Below are positions 1,722 to 63,971 of a DNA stretch of 64,000 nucleotides, piece after piece. The translations under genes and the position numbers were made by a program. The notes under the pieces are model-generated. The model ran no database searches and was not told where the DNA came from. It saw only the letters and a list, made by a program, of their open reading frames with translations. This DNA comes from Thermodesulfobacteriota bacterium. Its GTDB lineage: Bacteria > Desulfobacterota_D > UBA1144 > Nemesobacterales > JAJCZQ01. The stretch lies in the NCBI GenBank assembly GCA_965215275.1, contig OZ244044.1:640001-704000 (forward strand), written 5' to 3'. Each line of letters begins with the position of its first letter. Position 1 is the first letter of the stretch.

Positions 1722-4700
1722 ATGAAACATTTCAAAACAAAAACACGTAATTCCATTACTCCCCCCCCCCCCGTGTATACATGACCTTTCAGTCTGGTAT
1801 AAGTATTTTTTAAGAACAATGTTTAAGATAATACCCCCCCCCATCTAAGTCATTACTAACATTAGTCTTATTTCTTCTGTGTATCATGGTCATAGCTGCA
1901 AAAGGACAGAGCAGTCTGGAAGAAACATTATCTGAATGCAGAGGTAACAGTGCAGAAACGGAAGATCCGTTATACGGATGTCAGTGGCATCTGAAGAACA
2001 CGGGGCAGTTTATTTATTCAGGAAAGGAAATAACAGCAGGAGAAGATATAAACATAGAGGGGGTGTGGAACGAAGACGTATACGGTACCGGAATTAACGT
2101 AGCAATAGTAAGTGACGGTATCGACCTTTCACATGAGGACCTTTCTGCAAACGTCCGTTCCGGACCGAACTATGATCTTTCTGGAAGAAACAGTTCTGAA
2201 GAGAACAGTTCTGAAAAAGATAATTCAGAAAGAGATGATCATTCTGACGGTTCATCCTTTACCGGAACACGAGCGGCAGGTGTTATTGCAGCGGCTGGAT
2301 ATAACGGACTGGGAGTAAGAGGAACAGCACCTGGTGCGAGTATATACAGTTACAGGTTATCCGATGATCTCAGGGAAGCGGACGCGGTGGTCCGTAATAA
2401 GGAAATAACCGCTGTATCGGTTAACGGCCTGGGATCTGAGGACGGAGCTTTTTTTCAGGAGGCTTCAACTTCCTGGGAAGAAGGAGTGGAACTTGGTATA
2501 AGTAAAGGGTTTTATGGTAAAGGTGTGTTTTACGTCCGGGGAGCAGGGGACGGGCATGAGAATAACGATCAGGCTAATTTTTCTGAATATTCTAATTACT
2601 ACGGGGTAACATCTGTGTGTTCAACAGACGGTTTTGGAAAAAAGAGTATTTTTTCAGAAGAGGGAGTAAATCTATGGGTATGTGCACCTGGTTCTGATAT
2701 TGTAACCACAGATAACAACAACGATTACGTTGTAACATCCGGAACATTTCTATCAGCTTCACAGGTTGGAGGAGTGGCAGCACTGCTGAGAGAGGTAAAT
2801 GGACAGCTGAGCTGGAGGGATATAAAGCTTATACTTGCGGGTTCAGCACGTCAGAACGATTTTTCTGATATGAGCTGGGAGACTGGAACTGTTAAATACG
2901 GCTCTGATACGGAAAGATATAATTATAATCCTAAGTATGGTTTTGGAGTGGTAGACGCAGAAGCGGCGGCAGAACTTGCAAAAAGCTGGAAAGGCGTTGG
3001 AGAAATGAGGACCGTTACCGCCTTTTCAGATAAAGAGATAACAATTCCTGATGGAGAAGGAAATGGAGAAGGAGAAGCAGACGGGGTACTTGTCTCCAGA
3101 CTTATAATACCGGACCTGGAGGAAATATTTACGGAATTCGTTGAGGTAGAACTTGTTTTTTCTCATGACCGCTTACAGGACCTTGATATAAAAATAACCT
3201 CTCCTTCCGGAACAGTATCTGAACTTGTAAGGGAGTTTTCAGGGGAGGAAGAAGACGCTGAGATCAGTTACCTGAGAAGAACACATCGTTTCGGGTCGGC
3301 AAAGCACCTCGGAGAAGACCCTTCCGGAGAATGGGTCCTTAAGATATCCGATACTGCTTCCGGAGATGAAGAAGATGGAGAAAATACTGTTACCTTACAC
3401 TCATGGAGCATTAAGGTATACGGGAATTTTTATCAGGGACCTGGCAGTGAGATAAGTGCTAAACATCATGATCTTAGTTTTGGTGGTGCAACGGTAGATG
3501 AGCAGGTGTATGTTGTACGCTCAATAGCAGGTCTTCCAGTAACTCTGCCTGAAGCAACGAGAGGTACTGCTCCATATACTTACAGTTTAACTCCTCGTTT
3601 ACCTTCTGGATTGAACTTTAACAGTAACGATCGGCAAATAAATGGATTACCTACCAGTGTAAAAAGTAAAACTGAGTATACATATAAAGTAACGGACAAT
3701 GATGGAGATATGGATAATCTGACGTTCGGAATTACTGTAGAAGCTAATACCGTACCAAGCTTTACTAGCGGTGAGATGATAGATAATCTGGTGTATACAG
3801 TTGGGGTTCAAATAACACCAGTAACTCTGCCAGAGGCAACGGGAGGGAATGGAGCATTAAGATATTTACTTTCTCTTTTACCTCTTGGATTGAATTTTGA
3901 TCCTGACACCCGAGTAATAAGTGGCACACCCACCCGTGCATCTATTAGGCATATGCTATATACAGTATTAGACATAGATGGAAGTAGTGCTCAATTAGAG
4001 TTCAGGATAAGAATAACAGTAGCAGAACCAAACACGGAACCAACCTTCGGCAGTGAAACGATAGATAATAAAGTGTATATAAACGGCATTACAGCAGTAA
4101 ATGAAACACTGCCAGAAGCAACGTCAGGGAATGCTCCATTAACTTACAGTTTAACTCCTGCCTTACCTGCCGGATTGGATTTTACCCCTGCTACACAAGT
4201 TATAAGCGGAACACCGACTACTGCAACGTCTGAGACTGATTACACGTATACAGTAACGGACGCAGATAATGATACAGATGAACTGGAGTTCAGTATTACA
4301 GTGGAAGAAGACAGCATGCCGGAGATAGACGGGAGTACAATACCAGCACAGATGGAGTACAGGGCAGGGGGAGCACCATTAAGGTTTCCTGAGGCAACGG
4401 GAGGTAATGCACCTGTTACTTACAGTATAACACCTGAACTGCCAGCTGGATTGAGATTTAACGAAGTAACGCGGGAAATAAGTGGGACACCCAGGAGTGC
4501 ATTAACTGGTACTTACATGTATACGGTAACGGACAGGAATGGAGATACGGACGAGGTGAGTTTCATGCTCAGTGTAATACCAGGAACGTCAGGTACTGAT
4601 GCAGGCGGAGGTGGAGGATGTGCGATCTCTGATCAGAGCAGCGTTGTCTCTGACCTGCTCGGAGCAGTGGTATGTCTGATGCTTATACCTGTGTCAGTAA

Positions 4701-4738
4701 TGATCAGAAGGAAGAGAAGAGCTCAGATAAAGACTTAG
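1722..4738 (+). CDS. S8 paralog 1: kexin-like S8 pseudo-peptidase + P-domain + 4 putative Ig repeats + GGGGC-CTERM anchor; currently frameshifted at poly-C tracts (main ORF 1886-4738)
   Basis: S8 motifs QWHL, SWRDIKLILA and YGFGVVDA; P-domain DLDIKITSPSGT and GEWVLKISD; repeats LPEATGGNAPLTYSLTP..LPxGL.F...ISGTPT; C-terminal GGGGGCAIS-TM-RRKRR. The triad positions read VSDG, TGT and GTF. Confidence 0.88.
1761..1772 (+). repeat. Poly-C tract (C12), first tract in the paralog-1 leader
   Basis: Read directly; lies 39 nt after ATG 1722. Confidence 0.9.
1834..1842 (+). repeat. Poly-C tract (C9), second tract in the paralog-1 signal-peptide region
   Basis: Read directly; immediately precedes the in-frame hydrophobic stretch SKSLLTLVLFLLCIMVIAAKG. 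Confidence 0.9.
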
Positions 4739-4958
4739 TAATAAGGTCCTTTCCAAAACACTGAATGAATTAAAATCTCTCAGCCAGAAGAAAGGAATAA
4801 TAGTGGAAAGACTAAATATAGATTTATCGGCAGATGGGTACCTTGATGTATTGATGCTTGTTTTTTAATCTCGGACCAAAATATATAATGTCATAAAATA
4901 AAATTACCTCTTAAGTACCCGTCTTTAGTAAACATACTTGGCAGCTGCGAGACCAGCA

Positions 4959-6161
4959 TCAATTATTCTCAAACTTGATCTTCTTATCCTTTAAGGCTTT
5001 AACAGCACCGTTAATCCCTGAAAGGGTCATAGGAAACATCCTGTCCTCAAAAAACTCTCTCAACATCCCTATGCTCTCGGTCCATTTCCAATCCTCTAGG
5101 GGAACGGGGTTCAACCACACCGTATAAGGAAAATGTTCCTTGATCCTCTGCATCCATTGAAAACCAGGTTCCTCGTTGTGATGCTCAACGCTGCCGTTCG
5201 GATACATAAGCTCCCATGGCGACATTGAAGCATCCCCAACTACAATACATTTATAATCACCGTTGTATTTGTGAAGCACTTCAAACGTAGGTATCTGCTC
5301 CTGCCAGCGCCTTGCGTTATTTTTCCACAACCTTTCGTAAACGCAGTTATGAAAATAGTAAAATTCCAAGTGTTTAAACTCATATCTGGCAGCGGAAAAC
5401 ATCCTTGAGCAGAGTTCCACGTGATCGTCCATTGAACCACCTATATCAAAAAGCATTATCACTTTTACGTTGTTCTTTTTCTCCGGAACCATCTCAAGTT
5501 CAAGAAAACCTGCATTCTTAGAGGTCTTTTCAATTGTTCCTTCCAGATCGACCTCTTCCTTCTGTCCCTCTCGGGTCAGAACGCGAAGGCGGCGAAGTGC
5601 CATTTTCATATTCCTTGTTTGAAGTTCAACTGAATCATCAAGGTCTCTGAACTCCCTTTTATCCCAGACCTTTACAGCTCTCCTGTGCCTGCTTTCATTC
5701 TGCCCTATCCTTATCCCAGCTGGATTATACCCATAAGCACCGAACGGAGAAGTTCCACCCGTGCCAAGCCATCTGTCCCCACCCTGGTGTCTGCCTTTCT
5801 GTTTTTCCATGATCTCTCTCAAACGTTCCATAAGTTCGTCCAAGTTGCCCATTGATTTGATAAGTTCTTTCTCTTCATCGCTCAGCATATTTTCAAAATT
5901 TTTCCGCAACCAGTCTTCGGGGATTTTCATGAACTCCTCGTTACTTATAAGTTCGACCCCTTTGAAGTAATGCCCGAATAACTGGTCAAATCTGTCAATG
6001 TGCTGCTCGTGTTTGATCAACGCCGACCGACTGAGATAGTAAAAATCATCCACGCTGTGATCCACAACATTTTTATCAAGAGCCTCAAGAAGGGTTAAGT
6101 ACTCTTTGATCGTGACGGGTATTCCGTCGTTTTTTAGTAGCAGGAATAAATCTAAGAACAC
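4959..6161 (-). CDS. VWA-domain protein (CoxE-like partner of MoxR ATPase)
   Basis: MIDAS 'LFDIGGSMDDH', 'GTGGTSPFGAYGYNP', 'VGDASMSPWE'; same strand and cluster as the MoxR gene. Confidence 0.88.
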   Translation of the reverse strand: MFLDLFLLLKNDGIPVTIKEYLTLLEALDKNVVDHSVDDFYYLSRSALIKHEQHIDRFDQLFGHYFKGVELISNEEFMKIPEDWLRKNFENMLSDEEKELIKSMGNLDELMERLREIMEKQKGRHQGGDRWLGTGGTSPFGAYGYNPAGIRIGQNESRHRRAVKVWDKREFRDLDDSVELQTRNMKMALRRLRVLTREGQKEEVDLEGTIEKTSKNAGFLELEMVPEKKNNVKVIMLFDIGGSMDDHVELCSRMFSAARYEFKHLEFYYFHNCVYERLWKNNARRWQEQIPTFEVLHKYNGDYKCIVVGDASMSPWELMYPNGSVEHHNEEPGFQWMQRIKEHFPYTVWLNPVPLEDWKWTESIGMLREFFEDRMFPMTLSGINGAVKALKDKKIKFENN

Positions 6162-7576
6162 TGTCTATACTCAAAATCAATTTGCAAAGTCTTCTTGATA
6201 AAATTAATAAATGTCTTCTCTTCTTCATCCGGGGCATATTTTCCTGCTATTACTATTTTCTTTTTTCTTGTGTCGTCTTCAAAGCTATAAATATAAGAAA
6301 GAAGCTGACCTAACCCTTCTTTTATACAACGTATTGGTCTGCCAAGTTTTACTTCGTAAAGTGTAACTTGCTTGTCATTTTCTACCTTAATATCAATATA
6401 GTTCGCTTCCATCTCCACCGTGTCTGTTTCACCTTTACTGTTATATAACTTCTCATATATCTTGTTCTGCAGTTTATTATGTTCTTGCTTTACTACGATA
6501 TCCTCGCCGCCTTTCCTTAATTGGTCTTGAACAGATTTAGATTGTAATTGAACTCTTGTTTGTCTTTTCACACCTTTTGTATACTTATCTGCTTGTACGG
6601 CAGGCCAATCATCACTTCTTTCCTCAAGATGTTTTTTAATAGTCAACTCATCATCAAAATCATTTATCGTTCTTTCCTTTGTTTTATCTTTCTCTTTTGT
6701 TGCTTCAGTTCGTGAAGGCTTTGTTGCTTGATAACTACTACCTTGTCCGGCAGCTTCAACTTCAGCCATTGTTACCAAACCGCCAAAGCGGGATTCCACA
6801 TACTTAACACCGAATTTACCGGAACCTGCAAGATCAGTAGCACACCGAATGCCCCACTCGTTTTTGTGATGACCTACGGGTCGTGTTGACCTTCGTATTT
6901 CACGGTTAAGCATAAATTCACTTATACTATGCCCGTTTTTTTCAAGAAGCTCGCGACCAATAGACTTTAACTCGTCAAGGGTGTTATCACTACTTTTAAG
7001 TAGTGGTGATAAATATTTTCTTAACAAAACATACTTGTTGAGATATCGGTCTGCTTCTTCTAATTCCTCCGGTATTAATATTTCTTTATCAGCCTGTTCT
7101 TGGACTGTTTTTTTCTTATTTTTTGGAATAGACCTCACATTGTCTTTAGTTTTTACATTAGTATTTTTTTGCAGTGCACGTTCGCTGAGAATTTTATATT
7201 TGTCAATGCCTCCGTTAGCTTTAGCTGCGGATTCCAATGTATGAAATTCCACTCCGTATTTTGCTTTATAATTCGCACAGCTAAAAGTGCCGTCTGCTTC
7301 GGAATAAAGAGCATTTACTCCCAAGATGTTTTTAGGATGATCCAAGGGACGAGTTGCTCTACTTATTGTTCTATAAACCGGATTTTCAAAATCCGTCGGT
7401 GGCTTAGAACCATAGCTAATGCCTCTTTCATCAAGAAATTTACACGCCTTCACGCTTATATCAGATTTTGTATGACCGCCTTCAACCAGCATTTTAGTAA
7501 TCAGTGGAATTAAACAGTTATATTTCCCCCACCCATAACCGTGCTGATTACTTACTTGTTTTGATACTTTATCCAT
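6152..7576 (-). CDS. Uncharacterised protein with duplicated N-terminal module and C-terminal PD-(D/E)XK-like nuclease domain
   Basis: C-terminal HNKLQ..E..YIDI..YEVK..EGLGQLLSY pattern; internal repeat RATRPLDHPKNILG / RSTRPVGHHKNEWG. Confidence 0.6.
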   Translation of the reverse strand: MDKVSKQVSNQHGYGWGKYNCLIPLITKMLVEGGHTKSDISVKACKFLDERGISYGSKPPTDFENPVYRTISRATRPLDHPKNILGVNALYSEADGTFSCANYKAKYGVEFHTLESAAKANGGIDKYKILSERALQKNTNVKTKDNVRSIPKNKKKTVQEQADKEILIPEELEEADRYLNKYVLLRKYLSPLLKSSDNTLDELKSIGRELLEKNGHSISEFMLNREIRRSTRPVGHHKNEWGIRCATDLAGSGKFGVKYVESRFGGLVTMAEVEAAGQGSSYQATKPSRTEATKEKDKTKERTINDFDDELTIKKHLEERSDDWPAVQADKYTKGVKRQTRVQLQSKSVQDQLRKGGEDIVVKQEHNKLQNKIYEKLYNSKGETDTVEMEANYIDIKVENDKQVTLYEVKLGRPIRCIKEGLGQLLSYIYSFEDDTRKKKIVIAGKYAPDEEEKTFINFIKKTLQIDFEYRQCS

Positions 7577-7686
7577 AGTTTATGCACCTATTGTTTGTAT
7601 TTTTGCCATAAAGACAGTGTATTGCAGTTACTGCAAGTCTCGGTTTAATCCACCGAACTTGATTATCATAATAAATTGTTTTCTCG

Positions 7687-8001
7687 TCACTTTTTAACAC
7701 TTCTATAATAAAACACCTTACCAACATTCTCTATATGCTCTAAAAGAGGCTTATACTGAATTGATTCACACCCTATAACGTCAAACTTATAAGGAAGCGG
7801 TAACTCATCAAGGGCAGTTCTAACTCTTTCTATTTCCAGACTATCTTTAATTCCATACACTGCAAAATCAATGTCGGAATTGTGCTTGAATTTACCATTC
7901 GCACGTGAACCAAAAATAACTACTTTTTCAATGCGGTCGTCGGACAAAAAAACTCCGCTAATAAGGTCTTGCTCCCTTTCGTTAAGTCCGGTATTAATCA
8001 T
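7687..8001 (-). CDS. Minimal nucleotidyltransferase (MNT) antitoxin
   Basis: FGSRANGKFKHNSDIDFAV matches GSx10DxD; overlaps the upstream HEPN gene. Confidence 0.9.
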   Translation of the reverse strand: MINTGLNEREQDLISGVFLSDDRIEKVVIFGSRANGKFKHNSDIDFAVYGIKDSLEIERVRTALDELPLPYKFDVIGCESIQYKPLLEHIENVGKVFYYRSVKK

Positions 8002-8422
8002 TTTTTTTCATCTCGGATAATAGTGTTTCATGTAGGTAAATAAATGCATCCATATAATATTCTTCAACTGCCGTAAGTACCTCTTGGAATTTGCTAAAAT
8101 CGTAATCATGAGAAAGTATATTGCGATGGTCCATCATATCAATCCACACTTGCCCGTCATCTATAAGTCCACTATTATATGCCTCTTTTATAACGTTTCT
8201 GGGAGTTGAAGGTTTGAAAACTATTCCTCCATATTCAAGGTAAGCTTTGATCGTTTTCCATGAGAGCTCATAAGTGTACTTAAAGCGCTGTATAATCCCC
8301 TCCTGCTCCAAGTCCGAATACTCACTAATCTTCTTTGCTCTAATAGCAGTATGAAGAAGCGTAAAAGCCTTATCAAATTTATCAAATTGCTGTCTAAACC
8401 TTACCCCTTTGCCATTGTCCAT
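7994..8422 (-). CDS. HEPN (HI0074-like nucleotidyltransferase substrate-binding) toxin
   Basis: 'EQEGIIQRF..YELSWK', 'PRNVIKEA', intact RX4H motif 'RNILSHDY'. Confidence 0.88.
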   Translation of the reverse strand: MDNGKGVRFRQQFDKFDKAFTLLHTAIRAKKISEYSDLEQEGIIQRFKYTYELSWKTIKAYLEYGGIVFKPSTPRNVIKEAYNSGLIDDGQVWIDMMDHRNILSHDYDFSKFQEVLTAVEEYYMDAFIYLHETLLSEMKKND

Positions 8423-8426
8423 TCCT

Positions 8427-9260
8427 TCACCCTCTTCTGTACCTCAAAACATTCAACAATTCATGGTCCTGCTCGTTTTTCAGCAGCGAACCTAAATACG
8501 GTGGCATCTTTTCTCTGAAATCAACCTCTTTCAGTTCATCTGCATTGATCTTGCCCACAGTTAATAATTTCAGCCAGTCTATAAGTTCGCTCGTGGAAGG
8601 CTTCTTCTTAAAACCATCAACCTCTCTCAAAGAATAAAAAAGCGTAAGAGCCTGATCAAGCAGTTTCTTTTCAAGATCAGGGTAGTGGACTTTTACTATC
8701 TCAGCCAGCGTTTCCCGTTCTGGAAAAGCAATGTAATGAAAAAAGCATCTCCTTAAAAAAGCGTCGGGCAACTCCTTTTCATTATTTGAAGTGATTATAA
8801 CGGCTGGACGATTTTCTGCTTTTATTGTTTTTCGCAGTTCGTAGCAATAAAACTCCATAGTATCAAGTTCAAGAAGCAGATCATTTGGAAACTCAATGTC
8901 CGCTTTATCAATCTCATCGATCAGCAGAACGCACTGCTCCTCTGACTTAAATGCTTCCCAAAGTTTTCCTTTTTTAATGTAGTTTGATATATCGTTCACC
9001 CTGTCGTCCCCAAGCTGAGAGTCTCGCAGTCTTGCAACGGCATCATACTCGTAAAGTCCCTGCTGCGCAGTTGTTGTTGATTTGACGTGCCAAGTTATTA
9101 TCTTCTTTTTTAAAGCCTTCGCCACTTCGAACGCAAGCATGGTTTTACCGGTTCCCGGCTCGCCTTTTACAAGAAGAGGTCTTTCCAAGGTGATCGAAGC
9201 ATTGACTGCAAGCGTCAGGTCCTTGGTTGATATATAACTGTCCGTTCCTTCAAATTTCAT
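8427..9260 (-). CDS. MoxR-family AAA+ ATPase
   Basis: Walker A GEPGTGKT, Walker B LLIDEIDKAD, 'ELPDAFLRRC'. Confidence 0.93.
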   Translation of the reverse strand: MKFEGTDSYISTKDLTLAVNASITLERPLLVKGEPGTGKTMLAFEVAKALKKKIITWHVKSTTTAQQGLYEYDAVARLRDSQLGDDRVNDISNYIKKGKLWEAFKSEEQCVLLIDEIDKADIEFPNDLLLELDTMEFYCYELRKTIKAENRPAVIITSNNEKELPDAFLRRCFFHYIAFPERETLAEIVKVHYPDLEKKLLDQALTLFYSLREVDGFKKKPSTSELIDWLKLLTVGKINADELKEVDFREKMPPYLGSLLKNEQDHELLNVLRYRRG

Positions 9261-9482
9261 ATAAGCCCCTTTTTTCTATTTTTTGCTTACAAGAGTACTT
9301 CATTTCAAATATTTTCAATTTGCAATTTTCCTGCTCAATTAACCTGATATGTTCTCGTGATTCTTTGTCTCTTTCTTCCAAACCCTGAAAATTATAAAAA
9401 CTTTCCTAGTGGTTGACAAATGACCAGCTCCATTACCAATTCTTACAAGTAGCACACTTGCTCTCTATAAATCGTTTTCTCG

Positions 9483-9806
9483 TCACTTTTTAACACTTCT
9501 ATAATAAAACACCTTACCAACTTTCTCTATATGCTCTAAAAGAGGTTTATACTGAATTGATTCACACCCTATAACGTCAAACTTATAAGGAAGCGGTAAC
9601 TCGTCAAGGGCAGTTCTGACTCTTTCTATCTCCAGACTACCTTTAATTCCATACACTGCAAAATCAATGTCAGAATTGTGCTTGAATTTACCATTCGCAC
9701 GTGAACCGAAAATAACTACTTTTTCAATGCGGTCGTCGGACAAAAAAACTCCGCTAATAAGGTCTTGCACCCTTTTATTAAGTCCGGTATTAATCATTTT
9801 TTTCAT
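9483..9806 (-). CDS. Second, near-identical MNT antitoxin copy without a HEPN partner
   Basis: Protein nearly identical to 7687-8001; DNA 9467-9807 duplicates 7671-8012. Confidence 0.85.
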   Translation of the reverse strand: MKKMINTGLNKRVQDLISGVFLSDDRIEKVVIFGSRANGKFKHNSDIDFAVYGIKGSLEIERVRTALDELPLPYKFDVIGCESIQYKPLLEHIEKVGKVFYYRSVKK

Positions 9807-12379: not shown

Positions 12380-12409
12380 TTGACATTCGTTCATAATACT
12401 TGGTAAAAT
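12380..12409 (+). promoter_or_regulatory. Sigma70-like promoter of S8 paralog 2
   Basis: TTGACA (12380-12385), 18 nt, TAAAAT (12404-12409); ATG at 12419. Confidence 0.65.
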
Positions 12410-12418: not shown

Positions 12419-15400
12419 ATGAAAAATCCAAACATAAAAACACGTAGTTCCATTACCCCCCCCCATCTAAGTCATTACTAACCTTAGTCTTATTTCTTCT
12501 GTTTATACTGGTAATAGCTGCAAAAGGGCAGAGCAGCCTGGAAGAAACATTATCTGAATGCAGAGGTATGAGTTCAGACATAGAAGATCCGTTATACGGA
12601 TGTCAGTGGCATCTGAAGAACACTGGACAGTTTATTTATTCAGGGAAGGAAATAACTGCAGGAGAAGATATAAACATAGAGGGAGTGTGGAACGAAGACG
12701 TATACGGTACCGGAATTAACTTAGCAATAGTAAGTGACGGTATCGACCTTTCACATGAGGACCTTTCTGTAAACGTCCGTTCCGGACCGAACTATGATCT
12801 TTCTGAAAGAAACAATTCTGAAAGAAACAGTTCTGAAAAAGATAATTCAGAAAGAGATGATCATTCAGACGGTTCATCCTTTACCGGAACACGAGCGGCA
12901 GGTGTTATTGCAGCAACTGGATATAACGGACTGGGAGTAAGAGGAGTTGCACCCGGTGCGAGTATATACAGTAATGAGTTAACTGGTGATAACAGGGAAG
13001 CGGACGCGGTGGTCCGTAATAAGGAAATAACTGCAGTATTGGTTAACGGCCGGGGATCTGAGGACGGAGCTTTTTTTCAGGAGGCTTCAACTTCCTGGGA
13101 AGAAGGAGTGGAACTTGGAATAAGTAAAGGGTTTTATGGTAAAGGAGTGTTTTACGTCTGGGGAGCAGGGGACGGTCATGAAAGAGGAGATCAGGCTAAT
13201 TTTTCTGAATATTCTAATTACTACGGCGTAACTGCCGTTTGTTCAACTGACGGTTTTGGAAAAAAGAGTATTTTTTCAGAAGAGGGAGTAAATCTATGGG
13301 TATGTGCACCTGGTTCTGATATTGTAACTACTGATAACAAAAACGATTACGTTGTAACTTCCGGAACATTTCTATCAGCTTCACAGGTTGGAGGAGTGGC
13401 AGCACTGCTGAGAGAGATAAACGGGAATCTGAGCTGGAGGGATATAAAGCTTATACTTGCGGGTTCAGCACGGCAGAACGATTTTTTTGATCCGAGCTGG
13501 GAGACTGGAGCTGTTAAATACGGTTCTGATACGGAAAGATATAATTCTAATCCTAAGTATGGTTTTGGCGTGGTAGACGCAGAAGCAGCTGCAGAACTTG
13601 CAAAAAGCTGGAAAGGCGTTGGAGAGATGAGGACCATTACAGCTTCTTCAGATAATGAACTGACAATTCCTGATGGAGATGGAGAAGCGGACGGGGTCCT
13701 TGTTTCCAGACTTATGATACCGGACCTTGAAGAGGTAACATTTACGGAGTTCGTTGAAGCTGAGCTTGTTCTTTCGTGTGACTGCTTACAGGACCTTAAT
13801 ATACAGATAACCTCTCCTTCCGGGACAGTATCTGAACTTGTGCGGGAGGTTGTAAGGGGATCTTCGAATGAAGAAGAAAACTGCGTCAGTTACCTGAGAA
13901 GAACACATCGTTTCGGGTCGGCTAAACACCTCGGAGAAGACCCTTCCGGAGAATGGATCCTTAAGATCTCTGATACTGCTCCCGGAGATGAAGAAGATGG
14001 AAAAAACACTGTTACCTTACACTCATGGAGCATTAAGGTATACGGGAATTTTTATCAGGGACCTGGCAGTGAGATAAGTACTAAACATCATTTCAGTTTT
14101 GGCAGTCAGACGATAGATGATCAGGTGTATACAACAAGGGTTCAGATAACACCATTAGTGCTGCCTAGGGGAACTGGAGCGAATGGATCAGTAGGTTACA
14201 GTATATCTCCTAATGTACCTGCTGGATTGAGTTTTGATCCTGACACCCGGGTGCTGAGCGGAACACCAACTACTCCACAGGGCAAGACTACTTATACATA
14301 TAGAGCAACAGACGAAAGACCCGATACGATTAGTTTGCGCTTCGGTATCACGGTAAAAGGTCCAGCCGGTGATCCGAGCTTCGGCAGTCAGACGGTAGAA
14401 AATCAGGTTTTTGTTAATGGTTCAGCAGTAACGTTAACTCTGCCTGCTGCAACGGGAGGGGATGGAACTTTAAATTACAGTTTAACTAATAGTATAGGTG
14501 ATCCAATTAAAATTAATGGATTGGATTATAACGAAAACACCAGAACGTTAAGTGGAACGCTCAACGTTTCTCCAAGTGGATTACCTATAACTCAAACTTA
14601 TACTTACAAGGTAACTGATGATGACGGTGATTCTGACAGTATTACTTTCTCTATTACTATAACGGACCTGGCCTTTGACGGTGGGCTTCCTTCTTCTTTT
14701 TATGAATTAGCAGCAAATATATTATCAATAATACCCATTGTACCGGGTAATTCGTTTCCTGTTGCAACGGGAGGTACTCCTCCATATAGATACAGTTTTA
14801 CTCCTGTATTACCAGACGGATTAGCGTATAACTCTAATGACAGAGTTATACGCGGGACACCAACTACTGCAACGCCCAGGACTACCTATGCGTATACCGT
14901 TACTGACAATAACGGACATACGGCTGAATTGATGTTCGATATTGCTGTAAGAGCAGCCTTTAGAGGAAGCACTGTGATAAATAACAAGGTGTATTTAACC
15001 GGTACAGCAGTAACGGAAGTGCTGCCTGAAGCAGATGGACATAATGGAACGTTAACGTACAGTTTAACTCCCAAATTACCTTCCGGACTGGATTTTAATG
15101 AAAACACCCGAGAGATAACCGGAACTCCAGATACTGCAACTTCCAGAAGCACTTATACTTATACGGTAACTGACACAGATGGATTTAAGACCTCAAGGAC
15201 GTTCGATATCACAGTAAGAGCAGAACCCAACACAATGCCTACCTTCGGCAGTGAGACCATAGAAAATAAGGTATATATAAACGGAGAAGCAGTAATGGAA
15301 ACACTGCCTGAAGCAACATCAGGGAATGCTCCATTAACTTACAGTTTAAGTGCTGATTTACCAACTGGATTGAACTTTAATCCTGATACCCGAGTGATAA

Positions 15401-15933
15401 GTGGCACACCTTCTACTGCAACGTCTGAGGCTGATTACACATATACGGTTACTGATATAGATGGAGACACGGATGAGAGAACGTTCAGTATAACAATAGA
15501 AGAAGACAGCGAGCCGGACTTCAGCGTGACGACGATAGAAGATCAGGTGTACATGGGGAGATCAATAAGGTTGCCGGTAGCAACGGGAGGGAATGCACCG
15601 TTAGTATACAGTATAACGCCTCCCTTACCTCCTGGGTTGAGATTGGACAGAAACACCGGGGTAATAAGCGGGACGCCCGCGAGTGCGTCGTCTGAGAGGA
15701 CCTACACGTACACGGTAACGGACAGGAATGGAGACATTAAAGAGTTGACCTTCAGGTTCAGTGCAGCGGCTCCGCCACCGACAGGTAGTGATCCAGGCGG
15801 AGGTGGAGGAGGATGTGCCGTATCAGAGCAAAGCAGCGTTGATGAAGATATTCCTGGAGTAATGGCATGTCTGATACTTATACCCGTGTCGGTATTGATC
15901 AGAAGGAAGGGAAGAGCTTATATAAAGACTTAG
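12419..15933 (+). CDS. S8 paralog 2: pseudo-peptidase + P-domain + 6 putative Ig repeats + GGGGC-CTERM anchor; frameshifted at poly-C (main ORF 12568-15933)
   Basis: S8/P region nearly identical to paralog 1 (triad positions VSDG/TGT/GTF), different Ig stalk, C-terminal GGGGGGCAVS-TM-RRKGR. Confidence 0.88.
12456..12464 (+). repeat. Poly-C tract (C9) in the paralog-2 signal-peptide coding region
   Basis: Read directly; C10 would join ATG 12419 to the main ORF. Confidence 0.9.
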
Positions 15934-25699: not shown

Positions 25700-28600
25700 C
25701 TATGTTTTTATCTGATACCTTCTCTTCCTTTTAATTAATACTGATACAGATATCAGCATCAGACATGCCATCACTCCGAATAGATCAGAAACAACATTGC
25801 TCTGATCGGAAACCGCACATCCTCCTCCTGTACCAGTATCTGATGTTGTCGGTCTTCGTGGTGGTGACGGAGCGGGGGGAGCCTCTACACTGAGCATGAA
25901 ACTCACCTCATCCGTATCTCCATTTCTGTCCGTTACCTTATACGTGTAAGTATTAGATGATGCACGGATGGGTGTGCCACTTATAACTTGGGTAACTTCG
26001 TTAAAACTCAATCCAGCAGGTAAATCAGGAGTTATACTGTAAGTAACTGGCGGATTCCCTCCCGTTGATGCAGGCAGCGTTAATGGTCTCCCTGCTGTAT
26101 ACACCATTTGAGTTGAAATTGTCGCATCGTCAAGGTCCGGAGTGCTGTCTTCTTCTATAGTAATACTGAATGTCAAATCAGCTGTATCTCCATCTATGTC
26201 TTCTACCGTATATGTATAAGTATTCCTGCTCGTTGCAGTAGCCGGTATCCCGCTTATCTCTTGGGTAACTTCGTTAAAATCCAATCCAGTTGGTAAAGGA
26301 GGAGTTAAACTGTATCTCAATCCTCCATTCCCTCCTGTTGCCTCAGGCAGTGTTACTGGTGTTATTCGACTTCCTGCTATGTACTCCTGATCATCTATCG
26401 TCTCACCACTAAAAGTTGGCATTGCATCAGCTAATATCGTGATCCCGAACGTCAAATCAGCCGTATCTCCATCTATGTCTTCTACCATATATGTATAAGT
26501 AGTCCTGCTCGTTGCAGTAGTTGGTGTTCCACTTATCTCTCGGGCAGATGCGTCAAAATCCAATCCAGTTGGTAAAAGAGGAGTTAAACTGTACCTTAAT
26601 GTTCCATTCCATCCTGCTGCATCAGGCAGCGTTACTGGAAGGTTTATTGTTTTCCCTGCTACGTACTCCTGATCGGTTATCGTATCACTGAAGGTTGGTT
26701 CTTCATCTGTAGCTACCGTGATACCGAACGTCAAATCAGCCGTATCTCCATCTATGTCTTCTACCATATATGTATAAGTAGTTTTACTCACTGCAGTAAT
26801 AGGAGTTCCGCTTATCACTCGGGTAGCAGAGGTAAAATTCAACCCGGTTGGTAATGCAGGAGTTATGCTGTATCTCAATCCTCCATTCCCTCCCGTCGCT
26901 GCAGGCAGCGTTACTGGTTTTATTGGACTCCCTGCTATATACTCCTGATCATCTATCATCTCACCGCTAAAGGTTGGCATTGCGTCTGCTTCTACTGTGA
27001 TATTGAATGTCAATTCAGCCGTATCTCCATCTACATCAGTTACCGTATATGTATAAGTATTCTTACTCATCGCAATAGTGGGTGTTCCACTTAACACTCG
27101 GGTAGCAGGAGTAAAATTCAACCCGGTTGGTAATGCAGGAGTTATGCTGTATCTCAATCCTCCATTCCCTCCCGTCGCTGCAGGCAGCGTTACTGGTTTT
27201 ATTGGACTCCCTGCTATATACTCCTGATCATCTATCATCTCACCGCTAAAGGTTGGCATTGCGTCTGCTTCTACTGTGATATTGAATGTCAATTCAGCCG
27301 TATCTCCATCTACATCAGTTACCGTATATGTATACATAGTCCTGCTCATTGCAGTAGTGGGTGTTCCATTTATCACTCGGGTAGCAGGAGTAAAATTCAA
27401 CCCGGTTGGTAATGCTGGGGTTATATTGTAGGTTAATGGAGCATTCCCTCCCGTTGCATCAGGCAGCGTCACCGGAAGGTTTATTGCTGTCCCTGCTATG
27501 TACTCCTGATCATCTATCGTCTCACCACCAAAATCCGGCATGCTGTCAGCTTCTACCGTAATCCCAAACGTCAACTCAGCCGTATCTCCTTCTTCGTCTC
27601 TTACCGTATACGTGTAAGCAGTTTTACTCATTGCAGTAGCGGGTGTGCCACTTAGCACTCGGGTAGTGGCATCAAAGATCAATCCATCCGGCACAGTATC
27701 TAAACTATAAGTTAATGCTCCATCCCCTCCCACTGCAACAGGTAGCATTTCTGTTATTGCTGTACCTGTCACATATTCCTTATCATCTATTGTCTCACCA
27801 CCAAAGGTTGGCACATCAGATCCTACAATGATCCCGAACTTTATTTGATCTGTATCTCCATCATCATCGGTAACAGTATATGTATACATAGTCTTACTCG
27901 TTACAGTAGTGGGTGTGCCGCTTATCTCGCGGCAACTTCGTCAAAATCCAATCCATCAGGTAAAGCAGGTGTTAAACTATAAGTTAATGTTCCATTTCCT
28001 TCCGTCGCCGCAGGCAGTATTTCTGTTACTGCTGTACCCGTCATATACTCTTTATCATCTATCATCTCACTGCTAAAGGTTGGCACTGTATCGTTATTCC
28101 TATGACCATAAACTTTAATGCTCCACGAGTGTAAAATTCCTGTATTGTCAGAATCAGGATCAGATATATTCAAAGTCCAGTCTCCAGCGGGATCTTCTCC
28201 CAAGTGTTTGGCTGAACCAAAACGATGAGTTCTGTTGATGAAATCAAAGTCGTCTGTACTTCTCGTAAAAATTTGCGACACAGTGCCGTTAGGGGATGTT
28301 ATTTGTATATCTGGGACATATTCGTAAGTGAACCTGATATTAATCTCTACAAATTCCGTAAAAAGATCAGTATCGGGTATGTTCAGGCTGGAGACGGTAT
28401 CTCTGTTTTTTCCATCTAGGTGATCGGGGGGGGGGGGGGGGGAAGGGATTATTATGTCAATATTATTCGAAGAAGCAGTAAGGGTTCTCATTGGCGGAAC
28501 GGCAGTCCAATCTTCGGCAAGTTCTACTGCTGCTTCAGCATCCACTACCCCGAAACCGTACTTTGGATTGTAATTATAACTGTCTGAATCAGAACCGTAT

Positions 28601-30042
28601 TTAACTGCTACTGTCTCCCAGCCTGGGTCGGTCGGGTCGTTCTTGCGAGCTGAAGCTGCCAGTATCAACTTTAAGTCTCGCCAGCTCATATCACTGTTTA
28701 TCTCTCGCATCAGTGCTGCAACCCCTGAAACAACCGGAGCAGAAAATGATGTTCCTTTAACTAAAAAATAGTGGTCGTTATTATCAGTTGTTGTAATAAT
28801 TAAACCTGGAGCACATACCCATAAATTTACTCCTTCTTCCGAAACATTAATTTTCTTACCAAAACCGTCTACTGAACAAACGGAAGTTACAGCGTAGTAA
28901 TTAGAATACTCATCAGCATTAGTTTGATCTCTATTGTAATGTCCATTTCCACCTGCCCAGACATAAAAAACTCCTTTACCACCAAACCCTTCCTTGATAC
29001 CTGTTTCCACTGCCATTTCCCAAACTCTCTCAGCAGAGTAAAGACCAGAATTATCCGGCGGTCCCCAGCTGTTGTTGGATACCGCTGTTATAATGTGATT
29101 ACGGGTCATAGCATCTGCCCTGTTAGCAGAATTATTAAAAAGATGTGGCGCCTTTAACAGATCATAACTATATATACTTGCTTGAGGTGCTACCCCTCTC
29201 ACACCAACCCCATTATCACCCATTGCTGCTATAATGCCCGCTACTTGTGTACCATGGCCACTTCTAGGATTGAAGACATTATCCTCTCCAAGGTAATCAT
29301 GATTAAGATCGGAATTTACATTGGCAGCCAGGTCCTCATGATCTGTGTCCATACCATCATCGACCACTGCCACGTTAACTCCACTACCAAATATTCCATC
29401 ATTCCAGACTTCCTCCACGTTTATATCTTCGCCGGCGGGCATTCTCCGCCTGTTGATCCTCCACTGTCCTGTATTGTTCAAATGCCACTGACAACTGTAT
29501 AAAGGATCATCGGGAAAACTGGCAGTAATAAGGTCCTCACAATCAGAGGAATAAGTATTAGGTCTTGTATCTCTTATAACTTGAAGCTGGTACTGATCGG
29601 TACCACTGCTTCCTACAACGATATAGTACGTTCCCGGAACGAGAGGAGATGAAATATTCCGATTATCGTTGCTGTCACTTGCTATCAGGTTATCACTGCT
29701 GTCACACAACTGTAAACTGTATTCGAGATTGTTATCAGTGAAAGTCGTTTCTATAGTTACATCAATATCGTTTGCCGGGTCTATCTGAAAGTAATGCAGT
29801 CCACCGGCACTTTCAAAACTTCCATCGTGTGCCTCTGCGTTTACTGTCAACGTGGCTTCGACCGGTTCACTGGAGTCACAGTTATTAACACTGGTCTGAC
29901 CATATGCACCAATGGACATAAAACACAGAAGAAAGAAAAAGGGAATTACATAAACAACTTTATATACAGGCAAGTCGTCAGTGACTTTATCTGCCCATTT
30001 CTCCCTTGAAATAAAACTACGTAATTGATGAGGGTAAAACAT
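25700..30042 (-). CDS. S8 paralog 3: catalytically intact kexin-like protease + P-domain + 8 putative Ig repeats + GGGC-CTERM anchor; split by a 1-nt frameshift near 27930 (ORFs 27922-30042 and 25700-27889)
   Basis: Intact VVDDG / HGT / GGNG / GTS. The first Ig repeat continues across the frameshift (expected DEVAREISGTPTT). Ends GTGGGCAVS-TM-KRKRR. Confidence 0.87.
26821..27335 (-). repeat. Near-identical tandem Ig-repeat units (279-bp period)
   Basis: The unit EADAMPTFSGEMIDDQEYIAGSPIKPVTLPAATGGNGGLRYSITPALPTGLNFT occurs twice, with DNA offset 26922 vs 27201. Confidence 0.85.
28426..28442 (-). repeat. G17 (C17 on coding strand) homopolymer inside paralog 3, currently in frame
   Basis: Read directly; encodes SPPPPP at the start of the P-domain. 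Confidence 0.9.
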
Positions 30043-38053: not shown

Positions 38054-40554
38054 TCAAGTATATAAGTCCCAATTTTTTATCCGAGACCTTATCTTCCTTC
38101 TGATAACAACGGATACAGGTATAAGCATCAGAGATGCTACTGCTGTGAGCATATCAGAAGCAGCTTCGTTCTGCTCGGAGACCGCACATCCTCCTCCACC
38201 TGCATCACTACCTGATGGTGTTGGTCTTCGTGTCGGTGGTCTTGTTGTTGGTGGGTCTGTTGGTCCTGGCGGCGTGGTTGTTACCCTGATAGTGAATCTC
38301 AGCTCGTCCGTATCTCCATCTTCATCCGTTACCGTATATGTATAACTGCCGGAAGATACAGCAGTTGGTGTTCCGCTGATCACTCGGTCAGTTTCACTGA
38401 AAGTAAGTCCAGCAGGTAAAGAAAGAGGGGACAGGCTGTAGGTTAATTCTCCATTCCCTGCTGTTGCCTCAGGCAGTGTTTCCTTTATTGCAGTTCCCGG
38501 CACGTAATTCTTATCTGGTATGGTCCAGCTGTTAAACGTCGGTTTATTACCAGACATATGACCATAGACCTTAATGTTCCATGAGTGTAAGGTCCCCGCA
38601 CCTGCGACTGAAGCGTTGGTTATCTTCAAGGTCCACTCTCCGGCAGGGTCCGTTCCCAAGTGATTAGCTAAACCAAAACGATGCTCTCTGCCTGTATAGT
38701 CAAAGTCGTCTACAGTAAGAGATCTGCCAGATAATAAAAGTGATAAAGCTTCTGCTGGATATGCCTCAGTGAGTTTTGACACTCTACCGTCAGGGGAAGT
38801 TATTTCTATACTTAAAAAAGGAAAGAAAGGGTGAGTGAAATTGATACCGATCTCTATAAATTCCGTAAATACCTCAGTACCTGTTATATCGATATCAGGT
38901 ACTGTAAGTGTGAAAACAGCGGAAACATCTTTTGCATCTTCTCCCGTTGTGAATCCTGGTATAACCGTATCGATATTACCCGAGGAAACCGTCACGGGTC
39001 TCATTGGCGGTGGAACGTTGGTCCAGCTTTCGGCAAGTTCTGCTGCAGCAGCAGCGTCTACAATGCCAAAACCGAATTTTGGATTGTAACGATAATATTC
39101 TGAATCAGAACCGTATTGAAGTGCCACTCTAGTCCATTGTGTGTCGGTAAAACCTAACTGTACGTCATGACTGGTTGAACCTGCCAGTATCAGTTTCAGG
39201 TCTCGCCAGCTAAGATCACTGTTTACCTCCCGCAGCAGTGCTGCTACTCCTGAAACGACAGCAGCTGAATTTGACGTTCCAGGGAACTCAAAACTGTAAC
39301 CGTCGTTATTGTCGGTAGTTACAATACCAGAACCCGGTGCACATACCCACAGATTGAAACCCTCTTCTGAAAAGGAACTTTTAGTAACACTAGATGAAGT
39401 CTTACCGCTCTCTGCTGAACATACAGTGGTTACAGCGTAGTAGTTGGAATACTCATCAAAATTAGCCTGCTCTGCTCCTTCATGTCCGTCCCCTGCTGCC
39501 CACACGTAAAATACTCCTTTACCACCAAATCCTTCTCTTATACCCGTTCTCACTCCTTCTTCCCATTCTGATGAAGCCTCTGTAAGAACCGGCAGGTCCT
39601 TCGGTCCCCAGTTGTTGACCGATACAGCCGTTATATCCTTATTACGGACCATGGCATCCTTTGCGTTAGCATCACTGAAGTTATCAGCTAAATTATAACT
39701 GTAGATGCCTGCCTGAGGTGCTACACCTCTTACTCCAAGGCTGTTATCACCCACTGCTGCTATAATGCCAGCCACACGTGTACCACGACCACTTGAAGGA
39801 CTGTACAGATCACCGCTTCCTGAATAATCATGAGAAAGTGTGGTATCCACGTTATCAGCAAGGTCCTCATGATCTGTGTCCATACCATGATCTACCACTG
39901 CTACGTTAATCCCAGCTCCAAATATACTATCATCCCAGACCTCTTCTATGTTTATATCTATATCTTCTTCAGAGGTTTGGAATATCAGCTCGCCACTTAC
40001 TTGCACATCAACTGCTGGACGTTTCAGATACCACTGACACCCGTATAAGGGATCATTTGGAAAATTGGTAGTGATATCTGTACAGTCGCCGAGTAAGTTT
40101 TGAGAATCAGCTAATAAAACTCTGATATTGTAGGGTGTACTTCCACTGCTTCCCACAACTATATAGTACATTCCCTGTCTTAAGCGGGTTTGTAGAGTGG
40201 CCGTTGCTGCGTTACCTGACAAAGTCACTTCAGCAGTACTTGCTATCAGACCATCATTGCTGTCACATAACTGTAAGCTGTATCCCAGATCATTGGAGAA
40301 GGGGAAATTTGCCTTTATATCTACAATAAGATCTTCATTTATGTTTGTCCGAAAGTAATGCGGACCAGAACCGGCAGCTAAACTTCCACTACGTGTACTT
40401 CCGGCTACTCTCAACGTAGCTTCGGTCGTTGCACTGGAGTCACAGTTATTAACGCTGGTCTGACCATATGCACCAACGTTTACAAAGCACAGAAGAAAGA
40501 AAAAGGGAATTAATAACTTATGGGGGGGGGTATTACTCTGAATAAGATGTTCAT
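38054..40554 (-). CDS. S8 paralog 4: His-less pseudo-peptidase + P-domain + 1 Ig repeat + GGGGC-CTERM; frameshifted at poly-C (main ORF 38054-40414); stop codon interrupted by the IS
   Basis: VVDHG / GRGT / AGDG / GTS. ATG at 40554 followed by C9; C10 gives MNILFRVIPPPHKLLIPFFFLLCFVNVGAYGQ. Confidence 0.87.
40522..40530 (-). repeat. G9 (C9 coding) tract in the paralog-4 signal peptide
   Basis: Read directly. Confidence 0.9.
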
Positions 40555-40563: not shown

Positions 40564-40593
40564 ATTTTACTTTGTATTATTAATGAATGTCAA
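40564..40593 (-). promoter_or_regulatory. Sigma70-like promoter of S8 paralog 4
   Basis: Minus strand TTGACA (40593-40588), 18 nt, TAAAAT (40569-40564). Confidence 0.65.
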
Positions 40594-40805: not shown

Positions 40806-41450
40806 CTAAACAACATAAACAACCAAATAAACGACATTTGCCATGAAATGGAACGCCACACTTGACCAGATAGTGCCCGTTTTCATAAAAAGATATCCCA
40901 TTACGAGAGATGGAAAGAAAGTGCAGGCGTTGTTTACACAAACGGTACCTACGCTTCCCGCCGTCACGCAAACCAGTATCAGGTGAGCTATTGCAAACAA
41001 AGCACTGACCAGAACTATGGATTTGTACGTATTTCCAAACTCTCTCTGTAAATATCCTCGGAAAAAGAACTCTTCGGGAAAAGCAATTAATACAAACTGC
41101 GAAAATAAAAAGATACCGATCTCCCTTGTATCGCCAAACTTCCTGATATCCAAACTGCTTCCAACCCATTTGGAATATAGAAAGAGAAACAAGACATAAA
41201 AGAACAGGATAATGATCGATAAACCCAGTCCTTTAAGCAGTTTCGGTGTATTGAAGTGAAAAAAATCCAGGTCTTTGACCAATAATGCCGGAAGAATAAG
41301 CATTATATAGACACTGATATCCCATCCCAAAAACAGCTTTACAAAAAGAGAGGCAAGGAGCAAGACCAGATATGAAAAGACGGGTACTTTATAACGCTTA
41401 ATCAGTTCCTTTACCTTATAAAGCAAGGGAGTTCGTTTTATAAAAAGCAC
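40806..41450 (-). CDS. CPBP/CAAX (Rce1-like) glutamic intramembrane protease; candidate sorting enzyme
   Basis: Multi-TM; 'PEEFFFRGYLQ', 'SALFAIAH', 'AFHFMAN' (EExxxR, FxxxH, HxxxN). Confidence 0.88.
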   Translation of the reverse strand: MLFIKRTPLLYKVKELIKRYKVPVFSYLVLLLASLFVKLFLGWDISVYIMLILPALLVKDLDFFHFNTPKLLKGLGLSIIILFFYVLFLFLYSKWVGSSLDIRKFGDTREIGIFLFSQFVLIAFPEEFFFRGYLQREFGNTYKSIVLVSALFAIAHLILVCVTAGSVGTVCVNNACTFFPSLVMGYLFMKTGTIWSSVAFHFMANVVYLVVYVV

Positions 41451-61311: not shown

Positions 61312-61450
61312 ACGGGTCAGTATTTTTACGGTAAGACCGGATAAAAAATCCACAGTAATTCAGACGAATTTTAATCCTTTCATCTAAATTAAGGGGAATT
61401 ATATATTTAACTGTGCGAAAATAAAATATAGCCTTTGTATATTTATACAC

Positions 61451-61480
61451 TTGACATTCATTAATAATACAAAGTAAAAT
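61451..61480 (+). promoter_or_regulatory. Sigma70-like promoter of S8 paralog 5
   Basis: TTGACA (61451-61456), 18 nt, TAAAAT (61475-61480); ATG at 61490. Confidence 0.65.
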
Positions 61481-61489
61481 AAAAAGGTT

Positions 61490-63971
61490 ATGAACATTTT
61501 ATTTAGAATATCCCCCCCCCCACCATAAATTATTAATTCCCTTTTTCTTTTTTCTGTGCCTTGTAAACGTTAGTGCATATGGTCAGACCAGCATTAATAA
61601 CTGTGACTCCAGTGCAACGACCGAAGCTACGTTGAGAGTAGCCGGAAGTACACGTAGTGGAAGTTTAGCTGCCGGTTCTGGTCCGCATTACTTTCGGACA
61701 AACATAAATGAAGATCTTATTGTAGATATAAAGGCAAATTTCCCCTTCTCCAATGATCTGGGATACAGCTTACAGTTATGTGACAGCAATGATGGTCTGA
61801 TAGCAAGTACTGCTGAAGTGACTTTGTCAGGTAACGCAGCAACGGCCACTCTACAAACCCGCCTCAGAACGGGAACGTACTATATAGTTGTAGGAAGCAG
61901 TGGTGCTACATCCTATACAGTTCAAGTTCTATTAGCTGATTCTAGTGAACTCTTTGAGATCTGTCAAATTATCACTACCAATTTTCCAAATGATCCCTTA
62001 TACGGCTGTCAGTGGTATCTGAAACGTCCAGCAGTTGATGTGCAAGTAAGTGGCGAGCTGATATTCCAAACCTCTGGAGAAGATATAGATATAAACATAG
62101 AAGAGGTCTGGGATGATAGTGTATTTGGAGCTGAGATTAACGTAGCGGTTGTAGATCATGGCATGGACACAGATCATGAGGACCTTGCTGATAACGTAGA
62201 TACCACCCTTTCTCATGATTACTCAGGAAGCGGTGATCTGTACAGTCCTTTCAGTGGTCGTGGTACACGTGTAGCTGGCATTATAGCAGCAGTGGGTGAT
62301 AACAGCCTTGGAGTAAGAGGTGTAGCACCACAGGCAAACATCTACAGTTATAATTTAGCTGGTAACTTCAGTGATGCTAATGCAAAGGACGCCATGATCC
62401 GTAATATGGATACAACGGCTGTATCGGTCAACAACTGGGGACCGAAGGACCTGCCGGTTCTTACAGAGGCTTCATCAGAGTGGGAAGAAGGAGTGAGAAC
62501 TGGTATAAGAGAAGGGTTTGGTGGTAAAGGAGTATTTTACGTATGGGCGGCAGGGGACGGACATGAAGGATCAGATCAGGCTAATTTTGATGAGTATTCC
62601 AACTATTACGCTGTAACTACCGTATGTTCAGCAGAGATCAGTAATATTACAGGCAATAACAATATTATTAAGAGTTCTTTTTCAGAAGAGGGGTTCAATC
62701 TGTGGGTATGTGCACCGGGTTCTGATATTGTAACTACCAACAATAACGACGGTTATACTTTTGAGTTCCCTGGAACTTCAAATTCAGCTGCGGTCGTTTC
62801 AGGGATAGCAGCACTGATTAGAGAGGTAAACAGTGATCTCAGCTGGCGGGACCTGAAACTGATACTGGCAGGTTCAGCCAGTCATGACATACAGTTAGGT
62901 TTTACCGACACAGCCTGGAGACCAGTAGCATTTAAATACGGTTCTGATTCAGAACGTTATCGTCACAATCCAAAGTTCGGTTTTGGCATGGCAGACGCTG
63001 CTGCGGCAGCAGAACTTGCAGGAAGCTGGACCAATGTTCCACCGCCAATGAGACCTCTGACGGTTTCCTCGGGTAATATCGATACAGTTATCCCGGACTT
63101 CACAACGGGAGAAGACGTTTCCGATGTTTTCACACTGACAGTACCTGATATTGATATACCAGGTACTGAGGTCTTTACGGAATTTATAGAGATAGGTATC
63201 AATTTCACTCACCCTTTCTTTCCTTTTTTAGATATAGAAATAACTTCCCCTGACGGTACCGTATCAAAACTTGTTGAGGCATATCCAGCAGACGCAATAT
63301 CACATTTATCTGACAGATCTGTTACTGTAAACGACTTTAAGTACACGGGCAGAGAGCACCGTTTTGGTTTAGCCAATCACCTGGGAACAGACCCTGCCGG
63401 AGAGTGGACTTTGAAAATAACTAATAATTCACCTTCAGGTACGGGGACCTTACACTCATGGAACATTAAGGTCTATGGTCATATGTCTGGGGATACACCT
63501 ACGTTTAACAGCTGGACTATACCAGATAAGAACTACGTGCCAGGAATTGCAGTAAAGGAAACACTGCCTGAGGCAACAGCAGGGAATGGAGAATTAACCT
63601 ACAGCCTTTCCCCTCTTTCTTTACCTGTTGGACTTACTTTCAGTGAAACTGACAGAGTGATCAGCGGAACACCAACTGCTGTATCTTCCGGCAGTTATAC
63701 ATATACGGTAACGGATGAAGATGGAGATACGGACGAACTCATCTTTACCATCAGGGTAACGACTACGCCACCAGGACCGACAGACCCACCAACAACAGGA
63801 CCACCGACACGAAGACCGACATCATCAGGTACAGGCGGAGGTGGAGGAGGATGTGCGGTCTCCGATCAGAACGAAGCTGCTTCTGATCTGCTCACAGCAT
63901 TGGCATCTCTGATGCTTATACCTGTATCCGTTGTGATAAGAAGAAAGATAAGGTCTCGGATAAAGACATAG
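61490..63971 (+). CDS. S8 paralog 5: His-less pseudo-peptidase + P-domain + 1 Ig repeat + GGGGC-CTERM; frameshifted at poly-C (main ORF 61632-63971)
   Basis: Close copy of paralog 4 (VVDHG / GRGT / AGDG / GTS). C9 gives MNILFRISPPHHKLLIPFFFFLCLVNVSAYGQ. Ends GGGGGGCAVS-TM-RRKIRSRIKT. Confidence 0.87.
61512..61521 (+). repeat. Poly-C tract (C10) in the paralog-5 signal peptide
   Basis: Read directly; C9 or C12 restores the frame. Confidence 0.9.

Follow-up and report, generated by a model that had tools for sequence, protein, structure and literature searches.

The DNA analysed here (the window: 64 000 nt of a Thermodesulfobacteriota bacterium, GenBank assembly GCA_965215275.1, contig OZ244044.1, positions 640 001 to 704 000 of the forward strand) contains five dispersed genes for furin-like proteins, and in four of them the ATG behind the promoter is followed by one or two runs of 9 to 12 cytosines that put it out of frame with the signal peptide and the body of the protein. 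What could be the use of genes which, as they stand, are not read through? The original prediction saw in them a surface coat switched at random by slipped-strand mispairing, a reading that is supported by the tails of the proteins, by the conservation of the bodies behind OFF tracts and by one tract whose phase, as read from a protein end, differs in another assembly. On a larger scale, this is also the explanation that we consider likely: the genome would carry a surface repertoire of 60 paralogs, 52 of them poly-C-gated and switched gene by gene through slippage, each cell showing a small, changing subset of catalytically dead furin-like proteins, as some pathogens do. The furin-like modules would be borne on stalks of immunoglobulin (Ig) repeats, the frame being set, in these 52 genes, by a single or double poly-C run that follows the start codon; replication slippage likely turns each gene on or off independently, and the switching would be reversible within a population.

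The six tracts of the window, at 1761, 1834, 12456, 28426, 40522 and 61512, have exactly the positions and lengths that had been announced and are its only C/G runs of at least 7. The TTGACA-N18-TAAA(A/G)T promoters were also found, beginning at 1683, 12380, 40593 (minus strand) and 61451, with the four ATGs (1722, 12419, 40554 and 61490) 9 bases past the -10 hexamer, and the frame arithmetic holds, i.e. the predicted changes open full frames. Paralog P1 (K23 in our numbering of the family; 1722..4738, plus strand) has a sigma70-type promoter, TTGACA-N18-TAAAGT, at 1683..1712 and is double-gated and OFF: its full frame of 1004 amino acids is open only when tract 1 (C12, 1761..1772) is C11 or C14 and, together with it, tract 2 (C9, 1834..1842) is C8 or C11. 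It codes for an S8 domain, a P domain, four He_PIG repeats and a Cys tail. P2 (K24; 12419..15933, plus; promoter 12380..12409), with six He_PIG repeats and a Cys tail, has a single gate, C9 at 12456..12464, and is OFF; its frame opens at C7, C10 or C13 (1171 amino acids at C10). P4 (K26; 38054..40554, minus; promoter 40564..40593), also single-gated and OFF, carries C9 at 40522..40530, opens at C7, C10 or C13 (833 amino acids) and codes for a PPC-like domain, one He_PIG repeat and a Cys tail. P5 (K27; 61490..63971, plus; promoter 61451..61480), OFF behind a single C10 at 61512..61521, opens at C9 or C12 (826 amino acids) and has one He_PIG repeat and the Cys tail. P3 (K25, minus strand) is unlike these four, the shared promoter and leader being absent from it. 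Its C17, internal and located between the S8 and P domains (28426..28442), is in frame here, and a one-base frameshift near 27920, not at any long tract, divides the gene into a 5′ piece without 5′ gate (27922..30042; PPC-like domain, S8 and P domains) and a 3′ piece (25700..27937; seven He_PIG repeats and Cys tail).

The five genes do belong together, as had been proposed, but the family is not one of five members. In the single 1.99-Mb contig (99.87% complete, probably of Dadabacteria lineage) of which the window is part, it comprises 60 loci (59 tblastn clusters, one with two genes) that occupy 183.7 kb, or 9.2% of the genome; 34 of the 60 lie on the inferred leading strand, i.e. there is no replication-strand bias. 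The Pfam domains are those met in the window (S8, P domain, He_PIG repeats), long forms adding an N-terminal domain whose assignment as PPC-like is a lead. Frame-setting 5′ poly-C gates are present in 52 loci, single in 24 and double in 28, and absent from 8; those of K16, K29, K36, K44 and K50 were read individually, the automatic pattern having missed or misplaced them. Over-represented coding G/C runs of at least 8-9 that set the frame at the 5′ end, such as define contingency loci, are therefore what this family has. Five of the 52 gated genes (K29, K35, K42, K46 and K48) are ON from the first ATG and 47 are OFF, K10 and K51, where an ATG four bases ahead of the usual start is in frame, being scored as OFF; four further gated loci are in frame from a second ATG. 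Random frames combined with double gates predict about 11 ON genes, against the 5 seen, so that double gating is enough to explain, without selection, why most genes are OFF, and we do not claim strong selection for the OFF state. Nor do we claim leaderless translation, because a genome-wide survey of 901 long frames gave no peak of the leaderless signature. The full count, the separation of gated, dead copies from ungated, intact ones, the double gate in about half of the members and the phase difference between assemblies, the last three described below, are what is added to the original prediction.

Could the runs be there by chance, or be errors? C/G runs number 787 at length 5, 78 at length 6, none at length 7, 6 at length 8 and 133 at 9 or more. 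If the 6:5 ratio is extrapolated, only 0.08 runs of at least 9 are expected, and chance can thus be dismissed. Of the 139 runs of at least 8, 86 are inside or adjoin the furin-like family; many of the remaining 53 are in frames which, judged by eye from their translations, resemble DNA methyltransferases, TPR proteins and lipoproteins. Homopolymers are the typical error of long reads, and one may imagine that the genes are truly in frame and that the long C runs were miscalled. However, among mid-gene runs of at least 8, A/T runs remain in frame in 115 of 123 cases (8 shifted) and C/G runs in 9 of 19 (10 shifted), which makes assembly error unlikely. Moreover, the contig of one public run, maybe from the source sample, agrees without gap over 1200-1811; orthologs elsewhere are also called from internal starts; P1 would require two errors; and miscalls leave the very existence of the runs unexplained. 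We hold this to be the least probable of the explanations considered.

The double gates seem to have arisen by duplication. The 59-63 bases between paired tracts look like a worn copy of the promoter and leader, best kept in K4 (TTGACC-N17-TACAAT); in P1, a degenerate second promoter-like unit with a second ATG (1781..1821, plus) points to a tandem duplication of the promoter-leader-tract module. From this we infer that the duplicated switch works as an AND gate, two tracts in series having to be in phase, perhaps with a weak internal promoter. Another possibility is that the DNA is not switched at all, and that slippage of the RNA polymerase or of the ribosome on the C run ensures a constant low expression of all copies; a tract close to the start codon is indeed a place where recoding could act. 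But to regain the frame some copies have to gain a base and others to lose one (+1 or -1), the C17 tract has, as read from the end of a predicted protein, another DNA length in another assembly, and in relatives the run is found in the promoter spacer, where the length of the DNA alone matters. To such recoding we therefore give very little credence.

What the switches control is, in every gated copy, a body that lacks an intact active site. The prediction of a kexin-like scaffold was right as to structure, since an S8 domain is followed by a P domain, as in S8B proteases, and the nearest solved structures, for intact P3 and dead P1 alike, are furin and kexin (by sequence, E 1.7e-46 for P3 and 3.5e-34 for P1; by fold, E 1.4e-20). 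The AlphaFold model of P1 is poor in the S8 domain, with pLDDT (the predicted local distance difference test) below 50 over residues 1-175. Being nearest in structure is also what links the family to the Aeromonas sobria protease ASP; unlike ASP, furin and kexin, the triad is missing from most copies here, the short forms are too small to hold a prodomain, and an Ig-repeat stalk and a Cys tail are added. The prediction did not foresee that, among the window paralogs, only P3 has the D/H/N/S set: P1 and P2 have S/T/D/F instead, and P4 and P5 D/R/D/S, the catalytic His being replaced by Arg, so that these four are, on their residues, pseudoproteases. P3 also retains, in sequence alignment, acidic residues at the positions that form the basic-residue pockets of furin. 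The same division runs through the family. None of the 49 gated copies with an S8 domain has an intact triad (three gated copies have no S8); their patterns are D/R/D/S, D/R/x/A, S/S or T/D/F or V, and a few singles. Conversely, the D/H/S triad is retained in 7 of the 8 ungated copies: six have D/H/N/S (K18, K19, K20, K25, K31 and K44) and K14 has D/H/D/S, K17 being G/H/D/S. Some ungated copies have tracts of their own elsewhere: C9 in the leader of K14, G11 before the ATG of K17 and G13 inside it, an internal C9 in K20, and the C17 of K25.

Such a picture could also be that of an expansion in decay, in which a leader with a slippery run was copied along, frameshifts killed most copies, and the genes are young pseudogenes. 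The 47 OFF genes, the lost catalytic residues, six broken bodies among the 60 plus one stub locus, and the split P3 agree with it. On the other hand, in 48 of the 52 gated loci the body continues without a break from the signal peptide as far as the tail, and the ratio of non-synonymous to synonymous substitution rates (dN/dS) of the core, in an alignment that leaves out nine loci, is 0.37, 0.39 and 0.26 in three dead groups, well under 1, and 0.38 among five intact copies. The residues that replace the catalytic ones are themselves conserved within the dead groups, tracts arose at several unrelated positions (K14, K17, K20 and K25), and the same class of tract is found on methyltransferase-like and TPR-like genes and on other surface families of relatives. 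Decay is, consequently, very unlikely. Under the switched-repertoire reading, the dead proteins are predicted to be binding or decoy modules.

As to location, 59 of the 60 loci close with GGC, followed by a spacer, a hydrophobic segment and a basic terminus (4613..4738, plus strand, in P1), i.e. in the tripartite arrangement of Cys motif, transmembrane (TM) segment and Arg-rich end that characterizes Cys-containing CTERM sorting signals. Directly upstream of P4 lies the only gene in the genome for a CPBP/Rce1-like intramembrane protease (40806..41450, minus), a candidate sorting enzyme. Because of this tail and of the single CPBP gene beside P4, we predict that the family proteins sit on the cell surface; they would be exported by their signal peptide, and the Cys tail would be lipidated and cleaved by the CPBP protease. 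CPBP proteases cleave Cys-containing tails in Myxococcus, according to the part of the source consulted (PMC11980579). The MYXO-, JDVT- and Synerg-CTERM sets, as far as they are described in the parts of PMC11980579 and 10.1101/2023.06.07.544157 used here, are alike in Cys motif, TM stretch, Arg-rich end and, here, a single CPBP gene beside a candidate substrate; they differ in that four of the five window tails score 9.6-15.2 bits against Synerg-CTERM (cut-off 22.5), no other CTERM model being matched, and the protease scores below all Mrt cut-offs. Of 29 Dadabacteria-type loci, 3 have similar tails in the neighbourhood of the CPBP gene; in L025, L026 and L037, from other genomes of this type, long proteins with similar GGC-TM-Arg tails are encoded at most 6 kb from that gene.

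Do the tracts actually vary? Protein P0001 of another assembly, 91% identical to P3 and clustering with it, has exactly the end residues of a C10 allele where the window has C17, and K46, ON here, has two orthologs called from an internal start, both states being read from predicted proteins rather than from DNA. The K46 case is indirect, and neither difference concerns any of the five 5′ tracts of the window. Several findings weigh against the switched repertoire. K42 is ON in each of 3 assemblies and K29 in each of 2, and in 2 of 2 the call for K16 begins at an internal start; the tract at 1761 is the same C12 in the public run's contig mentioned above, the contig of a second run agreeing up to 1760, which is at most a hint of a difference; and in the assembled contigs compared, whose listed pieces covered, of the six tracts, that at 1761 only, no sample showed an allele mixture. 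The OFF excess in single-tract genes is not significant (4 ON of 24, p 0.06), dN/dS values between pairs of paralogs that undergo conversion may be a trace of past selection, the link between triad loss and gate rests on few independent evolutionary events, and the tail scores under the cut-offs of all catalogued CTERM signals. Finally, unlike Campylobacter jejuni, which is not known to have working mismatch repair, this genome has both mutS (868-aa frame) and mutL (617-aa frame). Slippage may therefore be slow, and loss of mismatch repair was rejected as its driver.

Slow slippage would suit a silent archive, in which most copies are stably OFF and serve as conversion donors for a few expressed ones, tract changes being rare and separating lineages rather than cells. 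The ON states common to several assemblies and the mismatch-repair genes speak for it, as do 46 exact shared segments of at least 200 nt among 29 loci, the longest of 1562 nt, and the mosaic P2, in which an 870-nt segment is identical to K36 and a 506-nt segment to K2. Yet nearly all gated copies retain a promoter, a signal peptide and a tail of their own, all of which a mere donor could do without, and tract lengths in the family range from 8 to 13. An archive thus appears unlikely, and the shared segments and P2 suggest rather that gene conversion adds to the variety of the switched repertoire.

Where the family came from may be sketched from its distribution. A tree built from 31 foreign proteins and 49 of the 60 loci (K38 only as a fragment) places the intact copies on the earliest branches, with the gated dead copies nested more deeply. 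The foreign homologs, outside the species group, are 40-51% identical and have other accessory domains, and close S8 relatives (E 1e-40) occur in 1 of 101 genomes of the order, the one analysed here (G000); in the congener G001, 80% complete, a close S8 relative was simply not found. Such distant homologs and such a narrow distribution suggest that the family was gained and expanded recently; an active protease would have been acquired, catalysis then lost, and the gate gained and duplicated. A protein scan of metagenome contigs gave 67 loci, 9 of them with any C/G run of at least 8 and none with the tail, and since the best was 44% identical, no conspecific DNA is among them; a DNA pattern scan of such contigs gave no match.

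Relatives gate other families, and do so at another position. A poly-G run in the promoter spacer was found in 10 of the 101 genomes, with 56 cases in G011, 13 in G025, 5 in G001 and none in G000, reversed controls giving none. Among 20 tract loci sampled in G011, 10 are promoters of this kind placed before collagen-like lipoprotein genes (L091, L093, L095, L098-L103 and L105). The spacers listed are of 14-16 bp in G011 and of 18-20 bp in G025, the usual length being 17. The congener has Ig-repeat lipoprotein genes (L069:7075, L070:1040, L071:1027 and L072:1074), three with leucine-rich-repeat (LRR)-like C-termini, in which G9-G10 lies between -35 and -10 in a spacer of 16-17 bp; it is predicted to switch the transcription of these genes, whose family has the Ig repeats in common with the present one. 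That relatives use different families and different switch positions argues for an evolved strategy. One may go further and propose that a horizontally gained furin-like protease became a library of 52 switched dead-enzyme surface binders, that loss of catalysis was coupled to gain of the switch, that tandem-duplicated AND gates set how rarely each variant is shown, and that, with the poly-G-gated collagen-like and Ig/LRR lipoproteins of relatives, this represents a recurring, independently rebuilt strategy of Dadabacteria outside a vertebrate immune setting. This wider proposal is tentative, possible rather than probable.

The mechanism, at least, is known, and the claim of an undescribed system must be narrowed accordingly; it stands for the family, its scaffold, its scale and its double gate, of which we found no description in the open-access literature, main texts only. 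A close case is NalP of Neisseria meningitidis, a surface subtilisin-like serine protease subject to slipped-strand mispairing at a coding poly-C, as the gated family here would be; in the part of the source consulted (PMC5472700) it is a single gene for an active enzyme, an autotransporter with an N-terminal lipid anchor. Here, there are 52 gated paralogs without intact triad, an S8+P module on an Ig stalk, a C-terminal tail and double gates. The Opa genes of Neisseria are, in the sections concerned (PMC5953494), surface genes present in several scattered copies, every one of which has a repeat switch to itself and is further varied by recombination, which resembles paralogs switched one by one; but they number 4 to 12, have CTTCT repeats and code for outer-membrane adhesins, as compared with 52 copies and poly-C here. 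The same sections place the peak of the whole Neisseria phasome near 54 loci (gonococcus) to 82 (N. lactamica). In Campylobacter, G/C runs of about 9-10 dominate likewise, with a median of 20 tracts per C. jejuni genome; the 139 tracts here are about seven times that number, and those of Campylobacter are not, from what this source gives (PMC6321876), concentrated in one 60-gene family. CspC and CspA of Clostridioides difficile provide an example of subtilisin-like pseudoproteases used as signal or binding modules; in the excerpt at hand (PMC12880746) they are two soluble spore proteins, with neither repeat switch nor large family, and the match of our family to CspC in NCBIfam is weak.

If the switched repertoire is real, it would be among the largest single-family repeat-switched repertoires compared (52 gates versus 4-12 Opa copies), and this in an uncultured lineage. 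It raises the question of what selects antigenic-variation-like systems outside vertebrate hosts (phage, predation or innate recognition; phage or host recognition would be our candidates) and that of whether bacteria can use pseudoenzymes as a scaffold for diversified binding. With the double tracts, nature would provide a test of gating in series; the tail, with its single CPBP gene, predicts a further sorting system.

The genes flanking the window paralogs deserve mention. A type I restriction specificity subunit is encoded just upstream of P1 (97-1107); genes for VWA and AAA ATPase proteins and for a nucleotidyltransferase/substrate-binding pair occupy 4959-9806, a second similar nucleotidyltransferase gene being at 9483-9806; and directly downstream of P4 (35466-38002) are an N6/N4 methylase-HNH fusion gene and an IS1595-family transposase. 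Elsewhere in G000, about a dozen methyltransferase-like frames have tracts of the same kind; one such gene has a 5′ C13 (G000:C1:828763) that is C9 in the congener (L081:2082). In a second paralog family, TPR-like, an internal C9-C11 stands at one position in eight loci (G000:C1:19539, 20737, 31545, 1068992, 1899949, 1901573, 1914729 and 1964984), four in frame and four shifted. Lastly, three lipoprotein-like paralogs (G000:C1:94069, 1295437 and 1301357) have G9-G10 immediately before the start codon, as in K17, where a tuning of the ribosome-binding site is possible.

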